Shown here one piece after another: positions 1 to 5,000 of a DNA stretch of 5,000 nucleotides. A model generated the notes under the pieces. The model made no database searches. It was not told the origin of the DNA and saw only the letters and a program-made list of their open reading frames with translations. The stretch comes from a virus (lineage: Duplodnaviria > Heunggongvirae > Uroviricota > Caudoviricetes), in the IMG/VR virus record IMGVR_UViG_2571042870_000016; one strand, given 5' to 3'. The stretch's first letter is position 1. Each line of letters starts with the position of its first letter. Both the position numbers and the translations under genes were made by a program.

Positions 1-201
1 ATGGCAAATAACAAACAAAGACATGTTGATGACATGACGGACTATGCTCGCATCAGAGTTGGCTCGAGGGGAGGTGCTTACATACCCTCTGAGGAAATTG
101 CCAATCTCCCTGAAGTCAGGGATATGCAGCAGCGAGCAGCAGCTATAGTAGGACGAGCTGCTAGAGTGCAAACTATGCAAAAAGCAAAGGAAAAGGTTTA
201 G
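1..201 (+). CDS. Small hypothetical protein (66 aa), first gene of an int-adjacent two-gene cassette
   Basis: Seen in sequence: ATG at 1-3, TAG at 199-201. Its 3' end carries the purine-rich AAGGAAAAGG that serves as the RBS for the next gene, which starts 4 nt after the stop, so the two are likely co-transcribed. C-terminal half is Ala/Arg/Gln/Lys-rich and probably helical. No family recognised. The ORF begins exactly at the window edge, so an upstream extension cannot be excluded. Confidence 0.45.
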   Translation: MANNKQRHVDDMTDYARIRVGSRGGAYIPSEEIANLPEVRDMQQRAAAIVGRAARVQTMQKAKEKV

Positions 202-205
202 CTAG

Positions 206-1057
206 GTGATTGCTTTACTACTGATTCCCATTCTTGTTAGCGGCTACATTTTAGTAGTCGCTAATTTATATCATTACTATCAATTGCATCGATACGATGG
301 CCAACTTTTGTATATAAAAGTTGCAGCTCATGGAACAATGAGTGTTGTTTTTGTGATTTTAGCAGCAGTAGTAGTGAAATATTTCTTTCCTAATTTTCAC
401 CCAATAGGAATGCTTTCAGATATTCTTAATGTCAAGAAAATAATAAATGGTAATAAAGCTGAAACATGGCTTGCTTTGATTTCATTATCATCAATTATAT
501 TTTCTTTAATTTGGGTGGCTTTAGTTTGGTTAAAAAATATGTTTTTTGGTTTCTTTTGTGAAAAGAAACATCATGAAAACATCTTTCATGCTAAGAAACT
601 TAGAGTATTAAGAAAAACAATTTCTAACTCAACTTTGGATAGTATGCTTTTAGATGCATTAGAAAGCAGTCCTAAAGAACCGATTCTAATAACCTTATCT
701 TCACGGAAAGTTTATGTTGGTATAGTTAATGGAATTCAAGAACCAACAGAAAGCGAAGCGCCAAATAGTTATATATCAATTTTCCCTATTATGTCAGGCT
801 ATAGAGATAAAGATACTCTTTCCATCACCTTTACGAATTCATATCCATCAGAAGTACTAGTGAGTTCAGCTATTACAATGGACTCCCAAAAAAGGCATAA
901 AGTGAAAAATATGGATATAATATTTCGTGCTGATGAAATTTCTCATCTTTCATGGTTCGATTTTGAACTATTTGAACAAGTCAATGATTCGATGAAGCAC
1001 GATACCATTGACTTGCGAAGTGAGACTTACTCAGGGGAAACTAGCGAAAATTTTTAG
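206..1057 (+). CDS. Hypothetical membrane protein (283 aa): three predicted N-terminal TM helices plus a roughly 170-aa soluble C-terminal domain; AT-rich cargo gene
   Basis: Seen in sequence: GTG start at 206 with AAGGAAAAGG upstream, TAG at 1055-1057. Hydrophobic stretches at about residues 2-22, 44-66 and 88-110, followed by a Lys/Arg/His-rich segment (KNMFFGFFCEKKHHENIFHAKKLRVLRK), which fits positive-inside topology. Hand counts of sample lines give roughly 22-37% GC here against about 48% in the prophage genes. No catalytic motif recognised. Alternative start at internal ATG (Met44) would delete the first TM helix. Confidence 0.6.
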   Translation: MIALLLIPILVSGYILVVANLYHYYQLHRYDGQLLYIKVAAHGTMSVVFVILAAVVVKYFFPNFHPIGMLSDILNVKKIINGNKAETWLALISLSSIIFSLIWVALVWLKNMFFGFFCEKKHHENIFHAKKLRVLRKTISNSTLDSMLLDALESSPKEPILITLSSRKVYVGIVNGIQEPTESEAPNSYISIFPIMSGYRDKDTLSITFTNSYPSEVLVSSAITMDSQKRHKVKNMDIIFRADEISHLSWFDFELFEQVNDSMKHDTIDLRSETYSGETSENF

Positions 1058-2243
1058 TAATTTCAGGTTTCGCTAAAATTTCAGCATGAGGTACACACAC
1101 CCAATCGATATGATTTTTAGTATAAATTTTTGTAGATTTGGCGTCGCTGTGTGCCATGCGGCCTTGCGGATCTATTCCCTGCTGATCGAAAAGGTGTGCC
1201 GCCAGCGCACGGATTTCGTGGAAGGTTGGTCTTTCTTCCATGGGTACATTGTCAAATAGTCTCAACCGATCACGAATTGCGGAAAACGATCTACTTAAAT
1301 AATCTGGGGCAACTTGTGTCGGATGTGAAACCTCTTTGCTTCGTTTAACTTGGCGTTCTGGGATCCTGTGAACGACAAACGGACTTGCCACATTATCTCT
1401 GCTATCGTCAATTATCCGTTTCAACTCTTCACCAATCGGTATTGCAACGTGTGATGCCTCTTTTTTTTGTACTTTCTGCCTATGGATATATAGTGTCCCA
1501 TAAATACCGTTTTTTGGCTGTTCTAACCATACGCACCCGCAGATGCCGTCTTTAGGTTCGCGAATTGAGTAACGGATTCGCGATACTTCGAGTCGTGCAT
1601 GTGTAGTTTGCAATGCTAGATCCATTGCTGTTCTTAACCATGGTGCAGCGGCCTGCCTGATAGCTATAAAATGCTCGAGTGACAGGCGCCGTCTTTTCTT
1701 CTCATCAGTCCTACGCATTTTTTTTCTGATGGCCGGGTTATCCAGCATTAGTGATTCATCGACCGCATAAGAGAACAACTTTTTAAGAAAGCTGACCTTT
1801 CTGTTCTGCACATTTGCGGATGCGCTGGCATGATATTTGTTGATGTAGGTATTAACGTGTTCAAGTTCGATATCGCATGCCGGAACATTTACGAAAAACG
1901 CTTTTACGCGTAGAGCGTCATTTTTCCAGTCATCTAAGGTACTCTGGGAAGGACGTTCGTCTTCGATAATCCGGGTCATTATGTGATCAACATGTTCAGC
2001 AAATGGTTTTGCTTCTCCGATAACACCGCCAGATTCTCTAATAAGATTTTCTACTGATGGAGATAATTCTGGTCTCATCCTCAGGTTGTACTCTCTGGCG
2101 ATTGCAATAGCTATTGCCCTATCCTTACCTATATTTTTCTTCTTTCCGGTAATAAGTGTGAATTTATAAACACCTCGATCTTTATCAAAAATCAGATAAT
2201 CAGGAAGATGTCTGTATTCTTTTTTACGTGGCCTTGCCGCCAT
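1041..2243 (-). CDS. int: Site-specific tyrosine recombinase, lambda Int family (prophage integrase)
   Basis: Seen in sequence: the N-terminus (RPRKKEYRHLPDYLIFDKDRGVYKF...GKDRAIAIAIA) parallels the lambda Int arm-binding domain (RRRSHERRDLPPNLYIRNNGYYCYRDP...GRDRRIAITEA). The catalytic region carries the conserved residues: Arg in TTHARLEV, PTFHEIRALAAHLF (H-x-x-R), RMAHSDAKSTKIYTKNH (His and the nucleophile Tyr). The track ORF runs 1041-2249 from a GTG; I place the start at ATG 2243 because GAGGGG sits 7-8 nt upstream of it, 3 nt after the xis stop. TAG stop at 1043-1041. The gene appears intact. Confidence 0.93.
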   Translation of the reverse strand: MAARPRKKEYRHLPDYLIFDKDRGVYKFTLITGKKKNIGKDRAIAIAIAREYNLRMRPELSPSVENLIRESGGVIGEAKPFAEHVDHIMTRIIEDERPSQSTLDDWKNDALRVKAFFVNVPACDIELEHVNTYINKYHASASANVQNRKVSFLKKLFSYAVDESLMLDNPAIRKKMRRTDEKKRRRLSLEHFIAIRQAAAPWLRTAMDLALQTTHARLEVSRIRYSIREPKDGICGCVWLEQPKNGIYGTLYIHRQKVQKKEASHVAIPIGEELKRIIDDSRDNVASPFVVHRIPERQVKRSKEVSHPTQVAPDYLSRSFSAIRDRLRLFDNVPMEERPTFHEIRALAAHLFDQQGIDPQGRMAHSDAKSTKIYTKNHIDWVCVPHAEILAKPEITKNFR

Positions 2244-2245
2244 GG

Positions 2246-2455
2246 TCACCCCTCGTTTATTAACTTGCGAACAGCTTGACTAACCATTGAGTCGACTCCC
2301 CATTTTTCTGTTTCGCAGACAAAAACAGAACCGTCCACGATGCGTCCCATGAGTAGACCGTTCTCGACCCAACGTTTTATCGTTCGGTTGTCAGGAATTG
2401 AGCCATTAGAGAATTCACGGCGTCCCCATTGGCTCGCTTTCATTAGTTTTGCCAT
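2246..2455 (-). CDS. xis: Excisionase / recombination directionality factor, lambda Xis-like (69 aa)
   Basis: Seen in sequence: lies immediately upstream of int, and its TGA (2248-2246) overlaps the int GTG and sits 3 nt before the int ATG. The motif SQWGRREFSNGSIPDNRTIKRWVENGLLMGRIVDGSVFVCETE parallels lambda Xis QEWNARQRRPRSLETVRRWVRECRIFP...KDGREYLFHESA (W..R...S..T..RWV...DG..F.E). The track ORF starts at a TTG at 2500; I prefer ATG 2455 (MAKLMKAS...) because GGAG lies 8 nt upstream. Confidence 0.8.
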   Translation of the reverse strand: MAKLMKASQWGRREFSNGSIPDNRTIKRWVENGLLMGRIVDGSVFVCETEKWGVDSMVSQAVRKLINEG

Positions 2456-2516
2456 GGCTGTTTCTCCACTTAGCCCGCTGCACTCGGGCAGTAATATCAA
2501 ATTCCAGTCCTGATAA

Positions 2517-2675
2517 TTAATTTTGTTCTCTGGTTGCTACCTGTTTTATTGGCCTGATGCTGTCCAGGATAAGACGGCGACGCATGTTTGGCGCACCCCA
2601 ACGGTAACCAGTCTTTTTGTCGTAGGATTCACAACGTCCGGCAACCCAGGACGTTTCAGTGGAATGTAATTTCAT
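2517..2675 (-). CDS. Possible small protein (52 aa, MKLHSTETSWVAGRCESYDKKTGYRWGAPNMRRRLILDSIRPIKQVATREQN); not in the supplied ORF track
   Basis: Seen in sequence: hand translation of the minus strand gives ATG at 2675-2673 and TAA at 2519-2517. It fills an otherwise gene-free 230-bp gap between the 120-aa gene and xis inside a tightly packed operon. The Shine-Dalgarno is weak (GGTG about 10 nt upstream) and no family is recognised. Confidence 0.3.
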   Translation of the reverse strand: MKLHSTETSWVAGRCESYDKKTGYRWGAPNMRRRLILDSIRPIKQVATREQN

Positions 2676-2730
2676 CCGCTTTTCACCGTCTCGGGTGAGA
2701 TAACAATTCCTGTATGAGTTTTTATCACGC

Positions 2731-3093
2731 TCATTTCTTAGTCTCCGGTGCTTTCGGCATTACTGCCCAGTGAGTGATATTGACGTTTTCAAGGTCCCCG
2801 ACCTGAAATGTCCACTGCCATTCTCCGGTTTCTTTTTGCCCCCATGTGTACCAGAGAGAACGCCAGCCAATCAGCCAGCCTTCTCCACTAGCATCAAATA
2901 ACAGAACACTTTCATTTGCTGGTGGCAGTTCAGCTGACACTGGTATTATTTTGTTTTCCAGTGCCGCACATTTAGCTTCAAGCGCGTTGAATTTACGTAC
3001 CAGGTACTCAGCATTTGTTTCGTTCACTTTCAGATCTCGCGGTACACATCTCCCACGAAGAAACCCTTCCATTTCGAAAACATTCATGCGCAT
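2731..3093 (-). CDS. Prophage early protein, YfdS-like (120 aa) with a Trp-rich C-terminal half
   Basis: Seen in sequence: ATG at 3093 with GGAG 8 nt upstream; TGA at 2733-2731. The start overlaps the upstream HD-protein gene by 10 nt, and an in-frame ATG at 3087 forms ATGA with that gene's stop. C-terminal region GWLIGWRSLWYTWGQKETGEWQWTF is Trp-rich. The YfdS assignment rests on synteny (P-Q-R-S order) and matching length to K-12 CPS-53 from memory, not on sequence recognition. Confidence 0.7.
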   Translation of the reverse strand: MRMNVFEMEGFLRGRCVPRDLKVNETNAEYLVRKFNALEAKCAALENKIIPVSAELPPANESVLLFDASGEGWLIGWRSLWYTWGQKETGEWQWTFQVGDLENVNITHWAVMPKAPETKK

Positions 3094-3620
3094 TTGCGTA
3101 ACTCCGATAACTCGTTAAAGCGTTCCATAAACATCCCGTAGGCATGGCCCGGTGCCAGTGGAATCACGTTGAACATCTCTGTTGCCGGGATACCTTCCAG
3201 TACAGGCCAGAAAGAGCCATCATCAAGCCCGAGATCGCGGCGTTCGGTTGCCAGCATGATGAGATCGGCATATTTCACGGGCGTACTCATAACTGGGGGT
3301 AACCCGTATTTCTCACGGATTACGGCGTCTATTTTTTCTTCCATTTGTTTATAGTCAGGAAGAAGGCGTTTCAGTGGTGCGGGAATGTCCTGGCAATACG
3401 CTTCTGTTGCATCATGCATTAACGCTTCAAAAGCAAATTCCTGCGGCACCAGCTGGCTGCAAAGAACCGCATGTTGGGCGACGCTGTAGAAGTGCGAAAG
3501 ATGACCGGCAAAGCGACAGATATTTGAAAGGGAAACCGCGATATCGTTAATATCGATGTCGTCTTTATTTATCCTGTCATAATAAAAATGCTTCCCGGAA
3601 AAAGTTTTAATAAATGACAT
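3084..3620 (-). CDS. yfdR: HD-domain metal-dependent phosphohydrolase, YfdR-like 5'-deoxynucleotidase (178 aa)
   Basis: Seen in sequence: HD-domain metal-binding motifs are present (GHLSHFYSVAQHAV, ALMHDATEAY, and a downstream Asp in TERRDLGL). The track ORF starts at a GTG at 3647 (187 aa); I place the start at ATG 3620 (MSFIKTF...) because GGAG lies 6 nt upstream, which gives 178 aa and matches the K-12 YfdR length as I remember it. TGA at 3086-3084. Confidence 0.85.
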   Translation of the reverse strand: MSFIKTFSGKHFYYDRINKDDIDINDIAVSLSNICRFAGHLSHFYSVAQHAVLCSQLVPQEFAFEALMHDATEAYCQDIPAPLKRLLPDYKQMEEKIDAVIREKYGLPPVMSTPVKYADLIMLATERRDLGLDDGSFWPVLEGIPATEMFNVIPLAPGHAYGMFMERFNELSELRKCA

Positions 3621-3713
3621 TTTGTTCTCCACGTATATGCGCTGCACCGCGCTGAATTCTGGTAAAAAGAATCCCTCACCATCCTGCGATTATTGAGTAA
3701 ATTACGTTTCCAT

Positions 3714-3735
3714 AAATGCCCCCGCAGGGGCATTT
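3714..3735 (-). terminator. Perfect 9-bp GC-rich hairpin (AAATGCCCC / CGCA loop / GGGGCATTT), 12 nt downstream of the yfdQ-like stop; candidate weak intrinsic terminator or RNA-processing structure
   Basis: Seen in sequence: 3714-3722 pairs perfectly with 3727-3735 around a 4-nt loop. On the minus-strand transcript the stem ends in UUU followed by AUGGAAACG, so there is no full U-tract. It sits in the 127-bp yfdQ-yfdR intergenic spacer. Confidence 0.3.
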
Positions 3736-3747
3736 GCAGTAATGAAA

Positions 3748-4572
3748 TCAGGCGGTGAAAGTACCAATAAAGGTTTCTACTTTGCTGTCCTTGAATTTCT
3801 CAACAAGCAGATCACGAAATTCGTTAGCCATTTCTTCCTGCACCGCCTCCAGCTGAATAATGCGCAGAACCAGTACAGGACGATCGCCAGTGATAATACT
3901 GAGGCGTAATTTAAACGGACGTTCTTTCAGACCTTCAAACGGAACGCATTTAAATTCAAATGCCACTGGCATAATGTCTTTGGTCTTCGCTTCGACAGAC
4001 TCCATCAGGGAGCGTTTGCCGCTGAAGTCATTATCTTCAAAATCAGCGGTCTGGTTTGCTTCAATCGTGATTTTACGGACAGCCGCAGCCGCTTTTGTTG
4101 CCTGAATGGCGTCACCATTAGCATCAAAGCCCACAAGGTAGTCGGCCCAGTCTTCAATCCATTCTGCCAGTGACTTCTGGGAGTTACGCTCGCCGTTAAC
4201 AGACAACAGAGCAGAGAACGGTGCTGTCTTTTTCAGTTTGAGAGTGGCGGTGTTATCTGCGTGACCTGGTTCATCAATAGTACCCAGGTTAAGCACACTG
4301 ACGGCACGCATATTATCGGCATCGATAAAGCAGCGGGTGCCTTCATCTGCAAGAACTTTAGAATAACGGGTAAAGTCATCGATGCTGGCAGTGGAAAGCG
4401 CACCACGGAAACGGAAGCGATTTAAATTAAATTTTTCCAGATCATGAATGCGGAAATTCTCAGGCAATGCCACAGCATCGGCACCAATCTTACTGATAAT
4501 TTCATTAACACCCTGAGCAGAAATAAGGGCATGGATTTGATTAATTGCGGTTGCGTCTAAGTTCTGAGACAT
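3748..4572 (-). CDS. yfdQ: YfdQ-like prophage protein (DUF2303 family, 274 aa)
   Basis: Seen in sequence: ATG at 4572 with GAGGA 6 nt upstream; TGA at 3750-3748. The protein ([28 protein letters not shown]...) and its length match my memory of E. coli K-12 CPS-53 YfdQ, and it sits in the expected position between the YfdP-like and YfdR-like genes. Function unknown. Confidence 0.85.
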
Positions 4573-4637
4573 AATAAGTCCTCACTATATAAAGATATTC
4601 AGTGATGAGATAAATAATCAGTTTATTACGAACGATA

Positions 4638-5000
4638 TTAACGACCTGCTGCGCGGAGTTTTCCGTCAGGTTCACCGGCAAGAGTCAGTAATTGTCCCTG
4701 GTCTTCCTGCAGAATAGTCAGGCGACCACCGCGATCGACATACATTGGCGTTTCGGTGGTGTCTTCTTCGGAAATTTTCCCGCGGTTAGTCGGGCGAACA
4801 TATGAGAGTTTGTGTTTGATTTTCACACGGTTCTCATCAAACGGTTCGATTTCCAGATTGAGTGAGACCTTCCCTTTGGTTTTCGTGTTCATCACACCGG
4901 AAGCGACTTCACTGAGAACTGCGCCGATTTTGGTTTCAAATACGCCGCCGTCCAGCTCCCCGATAAATGCCTGCACATCAGTACTGCGTTCGCTAGCCAT
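4638..5000 (-). CDS. YfdP-like prophage protein (120 aa)
   Basis: Seen in sequence: ATG exactly at the window edge (5000-4998), TAA at 4640-4638, 65 bp upstream of the yfdQ-like gene on the same strand. The YfdP assignment rests on synteny and length from memory. The RBS and any upstream extension lie outside the window. Confidence 0.7.
   Translation of the reverse strand: MASERSTDVQAFIGELDGGVFETKIGAVLSEVASGVMNTKTKGKVSLNLEIEPFDENRVKIKHKLSYVRPTNRGKISEEDTTETPMYVDRGGRLTILQEDQGQLLTLAGEPDGKLRAAGR

Follow-up and report, generated by a model that had tools for sequence, protein, structure and literature searches.

A two-gene cargo module with a predicted membrane-anchored Sm-like protein at the integrase end of an Escherichia coli prophage

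What is the function of two hypothetical genes that lie at the very end of a prophage, directly against its integrase? This question is raised by a 5,000-nucleotide (nt) stretch of a Caudoviricetes record from IMG/VR (IMGVR_UViG_2571042870_000016), hereafter called the window, which begins with two open reading frames (ORFs) of the same strand, ORF66 and ORF283, encoding proteins of 66 and 283 amino acids (aa) and converging on a tyrosine integrase gene (int). The best explanation for positions 1-1057, together with ~110 nt upstream, is a self-contained two-gene cargo module (moron). Given that the two genes form a conserved pair, are mobile, and occupy hotspots, a role in conflicts among mobile elements is the best supported reading of their function. 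The more specific proposal, that they constitute a two-gene conflict module acting in abortive infection or superinfection exclusion at the inner membrane, is one that we would accept and doubt in equal measure, and the case for such an anti-phage or exclusion role is circumstantial, resting on the position of the pair and on its neighbours.

The comparison of related prophages provides the clearest information on the nature of this DNA. Sequences that are 99.9-100% identical to the window are present in 24 of 5,426 complete E. coli genomes, among them that of avian pathogenic E. coli (APEC) O78, whereas a related integrase (85-100% nucleotide identity) is found at the same yejO/proL site in 110 of the 5,426 genomes. 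When the APEC O78 locus was compared by blastn with four E. coli prophages carrying related integrases, homology broke off ~110 nt upstream of ORF66, which is outside the window (~11890 in the numbering of locus L001), and restarted inside the int gene (Table 1). Following a common VPH(G/A)EI sequence, the integrase tails vary with the cargo and read KTG*, LYKQYEGFL*, KAIN* (in Klebsiella) or, in the window, LAKPEITKNFR*; by this comparison, the last int codons are supplied by the cargo DNA. Since the boundary is located within int and the cargo-specific tails comprise 3-11 residues, each exchange of cargo would rewrite the C-terminus of the integrase, downstream of a conserved KIYT motif which we take to be the site of the catalytic tyrosine.

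The alternative occupants of this slot are informative as well. In a sister prophage, the place of the pair is taken by a DUF2971 protein, which corresponds to the PADLOC candidate PDC-S31 (expect value, E, 4.9e-22), and others carry an AbiLi-like ATPase (E 1.6e-64) plus a second gene, with a DUF4760 protein, or further hypothetical genes. On the basis of these alignments, positions 1-1057 are the variable cargo of a slot in which recognised defence genes can stand instead. An initial annotation, made from the letters of the window alone, had raised the question of a variable cargo slot at this position and had taken the 283-aa gene for separately acquired DNA. Homology breaks and alternative occupants now establish the former, and the latter is supported by the presence of the cassette in only 24 of the 110 genomes with a related integrase, by the sharpness of the breaks, and by low G+C content (GC).

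Low GC is, however, a property of one gene only. ORF283 has a GC of 32.2% (24% at third codon positions; 27-35% in 200-nt windows) compared to 45.5% for the rest of the window (1058-5000), in agreement with its earlier description as far more AT-rich, but the accompanying label of an AT-rich two-gene cassette has to be given up, as ORF66 (46.8%) resembles its surroundings. In the RefSeq record of APEC O78, both coding sequences are annotated identically to our ORFs, as hypothetical proteins, and both are real genes under purifying selection. Comparison of ORF283 with its Klebsiella orthologue gave proportions of nonsynonymous (pN) and synonymous (pS) differences of 0.145 and 0.708, respectively, equivalent to a dN/dS ratio of ~0.075; for ORF66, pN was 0.21 and pS was saturated. 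The two genes are separated by a spacer of four nucleotides (CTAG, 202-205), and a Shine-Dalgarno-like AAAAGG run (191-196) is positioned inside ORF66, nine bases 5' of the GTG start codon of ORF283. Both hallmarks of the translational coupling that had been postulated are therefore in place, and the convergent overlap of ORF283 with int (Table 1) agrees with the picture of a module wedged against the integrase.

The pair is not restricted to this prophage. A word-indexed search returned 229 homologues of ORF283, and a profile search of 1.84 billion representative proteins yielded 2,631 clusters at E <= 1e-3, of which 1,324 remained at E <= 1e-10. The best 150 representative hits are 112-354 aa long (most of them ~240-340 aa), with no fusions evident among these. 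We retrieved 62 genome loci, which originated from Enterobacterales, Vibrio, Shewanella, Pseudomonas, Halomonas, and Legionella, from the Betaproteobacteria Lautropia and Brachymonas, from the Alphaproteobacteria Asticcacaulis and Novosphingobium, from some Acidobacteria, and from one Turneriella. In the 35 loci for which the start of the large gene was located, and which served to count the spacing of the pair, a same-strand ORF of 55-134 aa is found directly 5' of the large gene; the distance from its stop codon to the start of the large gene is 6 nt in the median and does not exceed 25 nt in 33 of the 35 cases. The usual core of the partner is (V)VGRGT(V)xIxPxEV...A..IV, with RVGSRGGAYIPSEEIANLPEVRDMQQRAAAIV as the version of the window, and a partner profile collected 108 proteins of 54-126 aa, all of them lacking Pfam domains and informative names. 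Neighbouring genes in 30 diverse loci were heterogeneous and included no third conserved gene, and the GC of the large gene was below that of the flanks in 30 of 30 loci, with a median difference of 10 points. Another clade of the family is present in 30 of the 5,426 E. coli genomes; with 24 and 30 carriers for the two clades, the family is rare in this species. Judged from these sequences, the small and the large gene are a conserved unit across Gamma-, Beta-, and Alphaproteobacteria and beyond.

Members of this family travel on a wide range of elements. While a nucleotide-level search of phages gave no match for the cassette, protein-level searches of phages and plasmids did. Cronobacter phage phiES15, which has been induced and sequenced, shows the order xis, int, a gene for 82 aa, a gene for 272 aa, and attP, with the pair being co-directional with int, and K. 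pneumoniae prophages with a homologous integrase carry the pair together with an extra 225-aa gene in the equivalent slot. In the P2-like Klebsiella phage ST15-OXA48phi14.1, the pair has bSEFIR (E 7e-103) as a neighbour and is located between a gpA-type nickase replication gene and the portal gene, and a divergent pair is present downstream of the replication gene of the P2-like Salmonella phage SEN5. In P2/P4-like elements of Salmonella, Citrobacter, and Enterobacter, the immediate neighbours of the pair are IetA and IetS (E 1e-132 and 3e-270). Further copies adjoin the integrase of a Vibrio cholerae island beside dusA, stand between a Bro-N gene and internal-virion-protein genes in an E. coli podovirus-type prophage, which we take to be the region where P22 carries sieA, and are found beside a RecD-like helicase on a Salmonella IncC plasmid (one of 31 matching plasmid records). 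When the four genes closest to the pair were inspected in the 30 diverse loci, IetAS was detected three times, and PD-T4-6-like, MkoA-like, and methyltransferase genes twice each. The earlier suggestion of an anti-phage or exclusion system thus gains from the position of the pair and from its neighbours (IetAS, bSEFIR, and the A-to-Q hotspot of P2), and loses from the lack of a match to any defence model.

This range of carriers also bears on the possibility that the pair serves the life cycle of the phage itself, either by modulating integration and excision through antisense transcription into int, or as a factor for DNA entry or the timing of lysis. The arrangement in the window is compatible with such a function: ORF283 converges on int with a 17-nt overlap, and no terminator-like site was found between the two genes, so that transcripts of the cassette would run antisense into int. 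Moreover, phiES15 and the Klebsiella prophages also have the pair next to int. In phiES15, however, the pair has the same direction as int; P2-like phages, plasmids, the dusA island, and chromosomal sites provide either no integrase or a different arrangement; and sister prophages with the same integrase lack the pair. A function tied to the life cycle of one phage is not expected for genes that reside on such unrelated elements, and we consider this explanation very improbable.

If mobile-element conflict is indeed the arena, the features of the two proteins might indicate how they act. ORF283 matches phrog_3630 (annotated as unknown function) over residues 1-271 of 283 (E 6.9e-75), and its C-terminal part also matches phrog_23864 (E 7e-12). 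Significant matches in Pfam, NCBIfam or PADLOC were found neither for ORF283 nor for ORF66, in line with the view that the module is uncharacterised; the one Pfam hit, to FPL (PF09758; E 0.0033, 17.9 bits at a cut-off of 26.1), is sub-threshold and was taken as chance. Hydropathy places three transmembrane segments (TM1-TM3) at residues ~1-23, ~34-65, and ~86-118, and an AlphaFold2 monomer model, which was based on 41 homologues and reached a mean predicted local distance difference test score (pLDDT) of 70.6, has helices at residues 3-19, 21-29, 32-60, and 84-119. The three N-terminal transmembrane helices recognised at the outset are thus recovered by both approaches, and the positively charged juxtamembrane segment corresponds to a stretch rich in lysine and arginine after the third helix. 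Residues 112-150 contain seven such residues, and the basic segment is helical in the model, at lower confidence. Following the positive-inside rule, the N-terminus should be outside and the C-terminus inside, which would place the C-terminal domain in the cytoplasm.

For this C-terminal domain, the initial annotation had recognised no motif. Its fold can now be proposed. The model (residues ~143-262) is beta-rich, with a helix at its N-terminus that leads into a barrel formed by a strongly bent beta-sheet of five strands. Two structure searches assign this domain to the Sm fold; in that of the PDB with Foldseek, the top 50 matches were Sm/LSm proteins or entries of small nuclear ribonucleoproteins and the spliceosome. 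Structural matches also include Hfq, LSm, and the Rho inhibitor Rof (YaeO); a search of the viral structures in BFVD gave weak and uninformative ones. We predict, with moderate confidence, that the C-terminal domain of ORF283 is an Sm-like barrel. The residues that are invariant throughout the family fall in two clusters. The first is the loop connecting TM1 and TM2, which should be the first cytoplasmic one, with its near-invariant motif HRYDGQLLYxK (residues 28-38, nt 287-319); within the N-terminal membrane module as a whole, L27, G32, Q33, L35, Y36, K38, G43, and S93 are invariant columns in an alignment of 41 sequences. The second comprises loops and strands of the barrel (RKVYVG, EPxE..PN, MSGYRDKDTL, and FTNxY); in full, the motifs shared by this domain read RKVYVGIVN, EPxE..PN, I(S)IxPIMSGYRDKDTL, FTNxY, and EISHxSWFD. 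The tail of the protein is not conserved in the alignment, and residues 265-283 have a pLDDT of <50.

ORF66 is predicted to be a small soluble partner protein. It is basic, with a net charge of +4, and matches phrog_5739 (annotated as unknown function; E 2e-8). Its AlphaFold2 model (pLDDT 74.7) begins with a disordered stretch, which is followed by a beta-hairpin (residues ~19-27) and two helices, one short (30-34) and one long (37-65); this combination of hairpin and helices resembles no known DNA-binding fold. A search of the PDB with the partner profile produced one marginal, unrelated match only. The hairpin, with its VGxxGxxxIPxE pattern, had suggested an antitoxin of the AbrB/MazE type, an idea that received no support from Pfam scans of 26 partner proteins, which revealed no AbrB/MazE, ribbon-helix-helix, helix-turn-helix or Phd antitoxin domain.

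These scans are relevant for a second explanation, in which ORF283 is a membrane toxin and ORF66 its labile antitoxin, and the two mainly stabilise their carrier by addiction, a dedicated anti-phage function being absent. The order of the genes is that of a classic type II system, with the small gene first and tightly coupled to the larger one, and its carriers include prophages, satellites, genomic islands, and conjugative plasmids. The pair has also been retained in a prophage that has decayed to 16 kb, and it is accompanied by no third conserved gene. Yet neither protein is similar to the antitoxin and toxin families of Pfam, the model of the partner lacks a DNA-binding domain for autoregulation, and single chromosomal sites in Pseudomonas are places where addiction would be pointless. 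We regard addiction as quite unlikely, with the qualification that many modules of this kind in hotspots prove to be abortive-infection systems, and that addiction and mobile-element conflict overlap to this extent.

A pair with a large protein of this family already appears, anonymously, in a published catalogue of the P2 hotspot (PMC9122126). Table S5B of this study compiles gene systems in the P2 hotspot of E. coli and includes, as system #57, an unnamed set of two proteins without Pfam annotation, with 75 occurrences and the note '2 TM', and, as system #43, a one-protein entry with 93 occurrences (Rousset et al., 2022; PMC9122126). Protein 1 of system #57 and ORF283 share 38% identity over 271 aa (BLASTP; E 9e-61). 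Protein 2 is of the VVGRG partner type and, by eye, hardly differs from partners in our alignment. Pairwise BLASTP gave no match between ORF66 and the #57 partner; the two are linked within one profile by intermediate sequences of Arsenophonus and Yersinia, and both types were recovered at E 1e-13 to 1e-22. System #43 aligns with the family at an hhalign probability of 99.3% and forms a distant one-protein branch. Systems #57 and #43 are both cargo of a phage variable region shown to be rich in anti-phage systems. System #57 and the pair of the window share the family of the large protein, gene order, and spacing. They differ in carrier and slot, which is the A-to-Q region of P2 for #57 and the int-attachment site junction of a CPS-53-type prophage here, and in clade, given that the window encodes a 66-aa partner of the AYIPSEE type. 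Relatives of the window's pair do occur in the A-to-Q region of P2-like phages. Our literature search found no mention of the two RefSeq accessions or of the PHROG identifiers, and the family motifs were not found in the accessible portion of the tables of the Rousset 2021 preprint. Two recent papers on prophage defence concern unrelated proteins, namely the ATPase GiPD474 and the HEPN protein HepS. The match to #57 therefore means that the family has been catalogued anonymously; in the literature searched, it has no name, no structural assignment, and no phage test.

Several characterised systems share individual features with the pair. RexAB, a two-gene prophage system thought to depolarise the membrane upon infection, likewise combines one inner-membrane with one soluble component. 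However, there is no sequence similarity, and the roles are distributed differently: RexB is a small membrane protein of four helices and RexA a large soluble sensor, whereas here the membrane protein is large and has its own cytoplasmic domain, and the soluble partner comprises 54-126 aa. A membrane anchor fused to a small ligand-binding barrel is a recurring design of abortive-infection effectors; in Cap15, for example, the barrel recognises a ligand and brings about oligomerisation and disruption of the membrane. Similar to ORF283, Cap15 (S-2TM-beta) of the cyclic oligonucleotide-based anti-phage signalling system (CBASS) has N-terminal membrane helices and a small C-terminal beta-barrel. 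In contrast to CBASS, no cyclase or other signal-making enzyme is present in or near our module, the predicted barrel is Sm-like, and there are three transmembrane helices instead of two. MscS, a heptameric ring, has the order of elements that is predicted for ORF283, namely three membrane helices and then a cytoplasmic beta domain of the Sm-like type. No homology to MscS was found, as there was no Pfam match and the hhalign probability was 0.05% against an E. coli MscS sequence that was entered by hand. The Sm, LSm, and Hfq proteins, as well as WYL sensors such as BrxR, CapW, and DriD, differ from ORF283 in being soluble; ORF283 has no helix-turn-helix and no Pfam match to LSM, Hfq or WYL, and its loops (EPxE, SGYRDKDTL, and FTNxY) are family-specific and acidic. 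Finally, P22 SieA, HK97 gp15, and T4 Imm are inner-membrane proteins encoded at moron positions which block the entry of phage DNA. These are single small proteins with neither an Sm-like domain nor a conserved partner, and no sequence similarity to the pair was found. In its proposed mode of action, the module comes closest to RexAB and to barrel effectors such as Cap15, and in its plan to MscS, but it belongs to none of these; its memberships are in phrog_3630 and phrog_5739 and in the anonymous #57 family.

A number of observations weigh against a conflict module built on an Sm-like protein. Recognised defence genes are neighbours of the pair in only a minority of the 30 loci, and guilt by association is imperfect, as hotspots also carry morons unrelated to defence. 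No family of PADLOC-DB v2.0.0 matches either protein at E <= 1, although version 2 includes many candidate systems, and the family motifs are absent from the tables of validated or additionally tested systems in Rousset et al. (2022; PMC9122126) and from the supplements of Vassallo et al. (2022). With respect to the fold, Pfam gave no Sm, LSm, Hfq or WYL signature at E <= 0.1, where the sub-threshold FPL hit was the only exception, and the family profile matched no PDB sequence below E 0.18; with no signal for Sm, Hfq or WYL at the sequence level, the fold remains a prediction of moderate confidence. In addition, the conserved barrel loops are acidic, unlike the basic or aromatic RNA-binding sites of Sm proteins. 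A third group of observations stems from chromosomal copies. Members of the Pseudomonas oryzihabitans group retain the same gene order across the pair and its flanks, at ~87-91% nucleotide identity, and P. luteola, P. asuensis, and P. duriflava have the pair between the same flanking genes at ~72% identity; the pair diverges to a similar extent as the flanks. The GC of these pairs is only 2.5-5 points below that of the flanks, that is, nearly ameliorated, and among the nearest neighbours scanned there was an MFS (major facilitator superfamily) transporter only, and no mobile-element domain. This suggests long vertical retention in the P. oryzihabitans/luteola group, the homologues of which are ~26-28% identical to the protein of the window. 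Likewise, the Vibrio pair adjoins an AraC-type regulator and a glutamate symporter, and the Shewanella pair is located near rpoH and ftsX. The question of whether the cassette might be conserved core DNA therefore has a divided answer: in E. coli it is mobile, whereas distant Pseudomonas pairs occupy one syntenic chromosomal site. The chromosomal copies are compatible with a defence role, but they also leave room for a physiological one.

Vertical retention beside transporters is also an argument for a third explanation, according to which the pair acts in lysogenic conversion or host physiology, as a small ion or solute channel, an MscS-like stress valve or a membrane-tethered Sm/Hfq-like protein that would bind and localise RNA, with ORF66 as its regulator. 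Three helices plus a cytoplasmic Sm-like barrel correspond to the core plan of MscS, the structural matches to Hfq, LSm, and Rof could point to RNA, and the family is large and of uniform architecture. At the same time, a patchy and mobile distribution with low GC, the repeated occurrence in defence hotspots beside IetAS and bSEFIR, and the acidic character of the barrel loops, which are not the basic or aromatic surfaces of RNA-binding Sm sites, all argue against it, and we judge a physiological role to be unlikely.

Returning to mobile-element conflict, we can outline how such a module might work. ORF283 would be held in the inner membrane by its three helices, with the Sm-like barrel facing the cytoplasm, and, as in other Sm-fold proteins, six or seven subunits could assemble into a ring, thereby bundling 18-21 helices in a manner that parallels MscS channels without kinship. 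The co-translated ORF66 might bind the acidic face of the barrel (EPxE, SGYR, and FTNxY) or the HRYDGQLLYxK loop, and could act either as an antitoxin-like brake that keeps the complex closed, or as an adaptor recognising a phage product. Infection would perturb this pairing and result in ion leakage and arrest of the cell, or in a block of genome entry. Taken together, these steps would define a new class of immune or exclusion module borne by mobile elements, in which a membrane-anchored Sm-fold ring is gated by a protein of ~60-90 aa and a phage cue and serves as a pore or as an entry plug; we put this forward tentatively and hold it, as a whole, to be clearly less likely than not. The predicted membrane-anchored Sm-like domain and its obligatory mini-partner are the unusual elements of the module.

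If the pair is protective, it represents a widespread immune system that has been missed by current annotation tools, with occurrences in E. coli, Klebsiella, Salmonella, Enterobacter, Serratia, Vibrio, and Pseudomonas and on phages, satellites, islands, and IncC plasmids. Such a system would be relevant for phage therapy directed at APEC, Klebsiella, and Salmonella lineages. Should the proposed architecture be correct, ORF283 would be the first membrane-embedded Sm-like effector, adding a new job, together with an obligatory mini-partner, to those of the Sm fold, and at least 2,600 sequence clusters across Proteobacteria would belong to a class that is named in no current defence catalogue. 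The cargo slot itself, with its boundary in the last int codons, offers a convenient place to mine candidate systems. Even if not defensive, this remains a large conserved family that merits a Pfam entry.

Table 1. Coordinates of the two-gene module, its predicted domains, and the adjoining prophage genes in the 5,000-nt window
Feature	Position	Strand	Details
ORF66	1-201	+	ATG at base 1, TAG at 199-201; 66 aa; RefSeq WP_000002741.1
Coupling junction	187-208	+	Shine-Dalgarno-like AAGGAAAAGG in the 3' end of ORF66, TAG, spacer CTAG, GTG
ORF283	206-1057	+	GTG start (206-208); 283-aa membrane protein; RefSeq WP_000561018.1
N-terminal membrane module, residues 1-118	206-559	+	Hydropathy and AlphaFold2
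Basic segment after TM3, residues ~119-142	560-631	+	EKKHHENIFHAKKLRVLRKTISNS; lysine/arginine content
Predicted Sm/LSm/Hfq-like beta-barrel, residues ~143-262	632-991	+	AlphaFold2 and fold search
Variable low-confidence C-terminal tail, residues 263-283	992-1054	+	pLDDT and alignment
Convergent overlap of ORF283 and int	1041-1057		17 nt, 3' end against 3' end
Right slot boundary, homology restarts	1075-1100		blastn, sister prophages
Tyrosine integrase, 400 aa	1041-2243	-	Lambda-type arm-binding domain; RefSeq WP_000741303.1
Excisionase-like gene, 69 aa in RefSeq	2246-2455	-	Weak match to phrog_629 (excisionase), E 0.008
yfdR	3084-3647	-	Early gene of CPS-53 (KplE1) type
YfdQ	3748-4572	-	Early gene of CPS-53 (KplE1) type
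YfdP	4638-5000	-	Early gene of CPS-53 (KplE1) type

In APEC O78, the surrounding element is a ~16 kb prophage remnant in the tRNA-Pro gene proL, between yejM and a yejO-like autotransporter gene. Its int-proximal end begins with the junction, followed by ~240 nt, ORF66, ORF283, and then, on the minus strand, int and the excisionase-like gene, and yfdR, yfdQ, and yfdP. The integrase, whose ORF spans 1041-2243/2249, matches Pfam Arm-DNA-bind_1 (E 5.8e-6) and phrog_1 (integrase; E 1.4e-30), and the excisionase-like gene is conserved beside int in all sister prophages. The HD-domain 5'-deoxynucleotidase similar to YfdR is assigned from a sub-threshold Pfam match and the RefSeq name yfdR, and YfdQ/DUF2303 was matched with E 8e-92. 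The remnant is otherwise in an advanced state of decay. A PerC-like regulator and genes for methyltransferase, antiterminator, HNH, tail-fibre assembly, and recombinase functions are frameshifted or truncated (14517-14734 in L001, corresponding to window positions 2517-2734, as well as 17015-18177 and 21988-23628), and IS2 is inserted; the cassette, int, and the yfdPQR-like early genes are still intact. A gene for a DUF262 protein is located near the far end.

The junction itself carries a peculiar tRNA annotation. RefSeq lists a 78-nt tRNA-Pro at the int-proximal junction (11713-11790 in L001; 3054020-3054097 in NC_020163.1), ~210-290 nt upstream of the first base of the window, which is called neither by ARAGORN nor by the tRNA model of Rfam. 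An intact proL of 77 nt (3037935-3038011) is found at the far end, ~16 kb away, beside yejM. Compared with what we take to be the proL sequence, only the 3' half of the junction copy, up to the anticodon loop, looks native, and the 5' half is derived from the phage; by eye, this 5' half pairs 7/7 with the 3' strand of the acceptor. The attP of the phage may thus carry a degenerate but whole tRNA-like sequence, and the tRNA-Pro annotated at the junction is probably a pseudo-tRNA.

With regard to expression of the cassette, a promoter scan returned one good consensus match, TTTACT-16-TATAAT (11811-11838 in L001), in the conserved arm proximal to the attachment site. The number of matches was no higher than in shuffled sequence, and a promoter is therefore not established. 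A weak match to Rfam RF01691 ('Bacillus-plasmid RNA') is present on the minus strand at window positions 968-1015 (12968-13015 in L001), antisense to the 3' end of ORF283; at 26.9 bits (gathering score 31; E 0.003) it is below threshold and probably due to chance.

Some related loci deviate from the arrangement in APEC O78. In the endosymbionts Arsenophonus, Sodalis, and Phlomobacter (eight loci), the large gene is mostly truncated or frameshifted, and some of these genomes have two copies, consistent with the general decay of genes in such organisms. In the K. pneumoniae prophages, the third, 225-aa gene (8285-8962 in loci L074-L078) separates the pair from int, has the same orientation as the pair, and matches PADLOC candidate PDC-S64 weakly (E 6.5e-7). 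One of these loci, L075, has a second integrase island immediately upstream, with genes for an SMC-like ATPase, MComp1, and CTD1. In E. coli FORC_042, the chromosomal flank and the cargo slot are separated by a second integrase element (327-3795 in L003) with a gene for an integrase domain, two hypothetical genes, and a fragment of a recombinase gene, which indicates that this insertion site accumulates tandem insertions.

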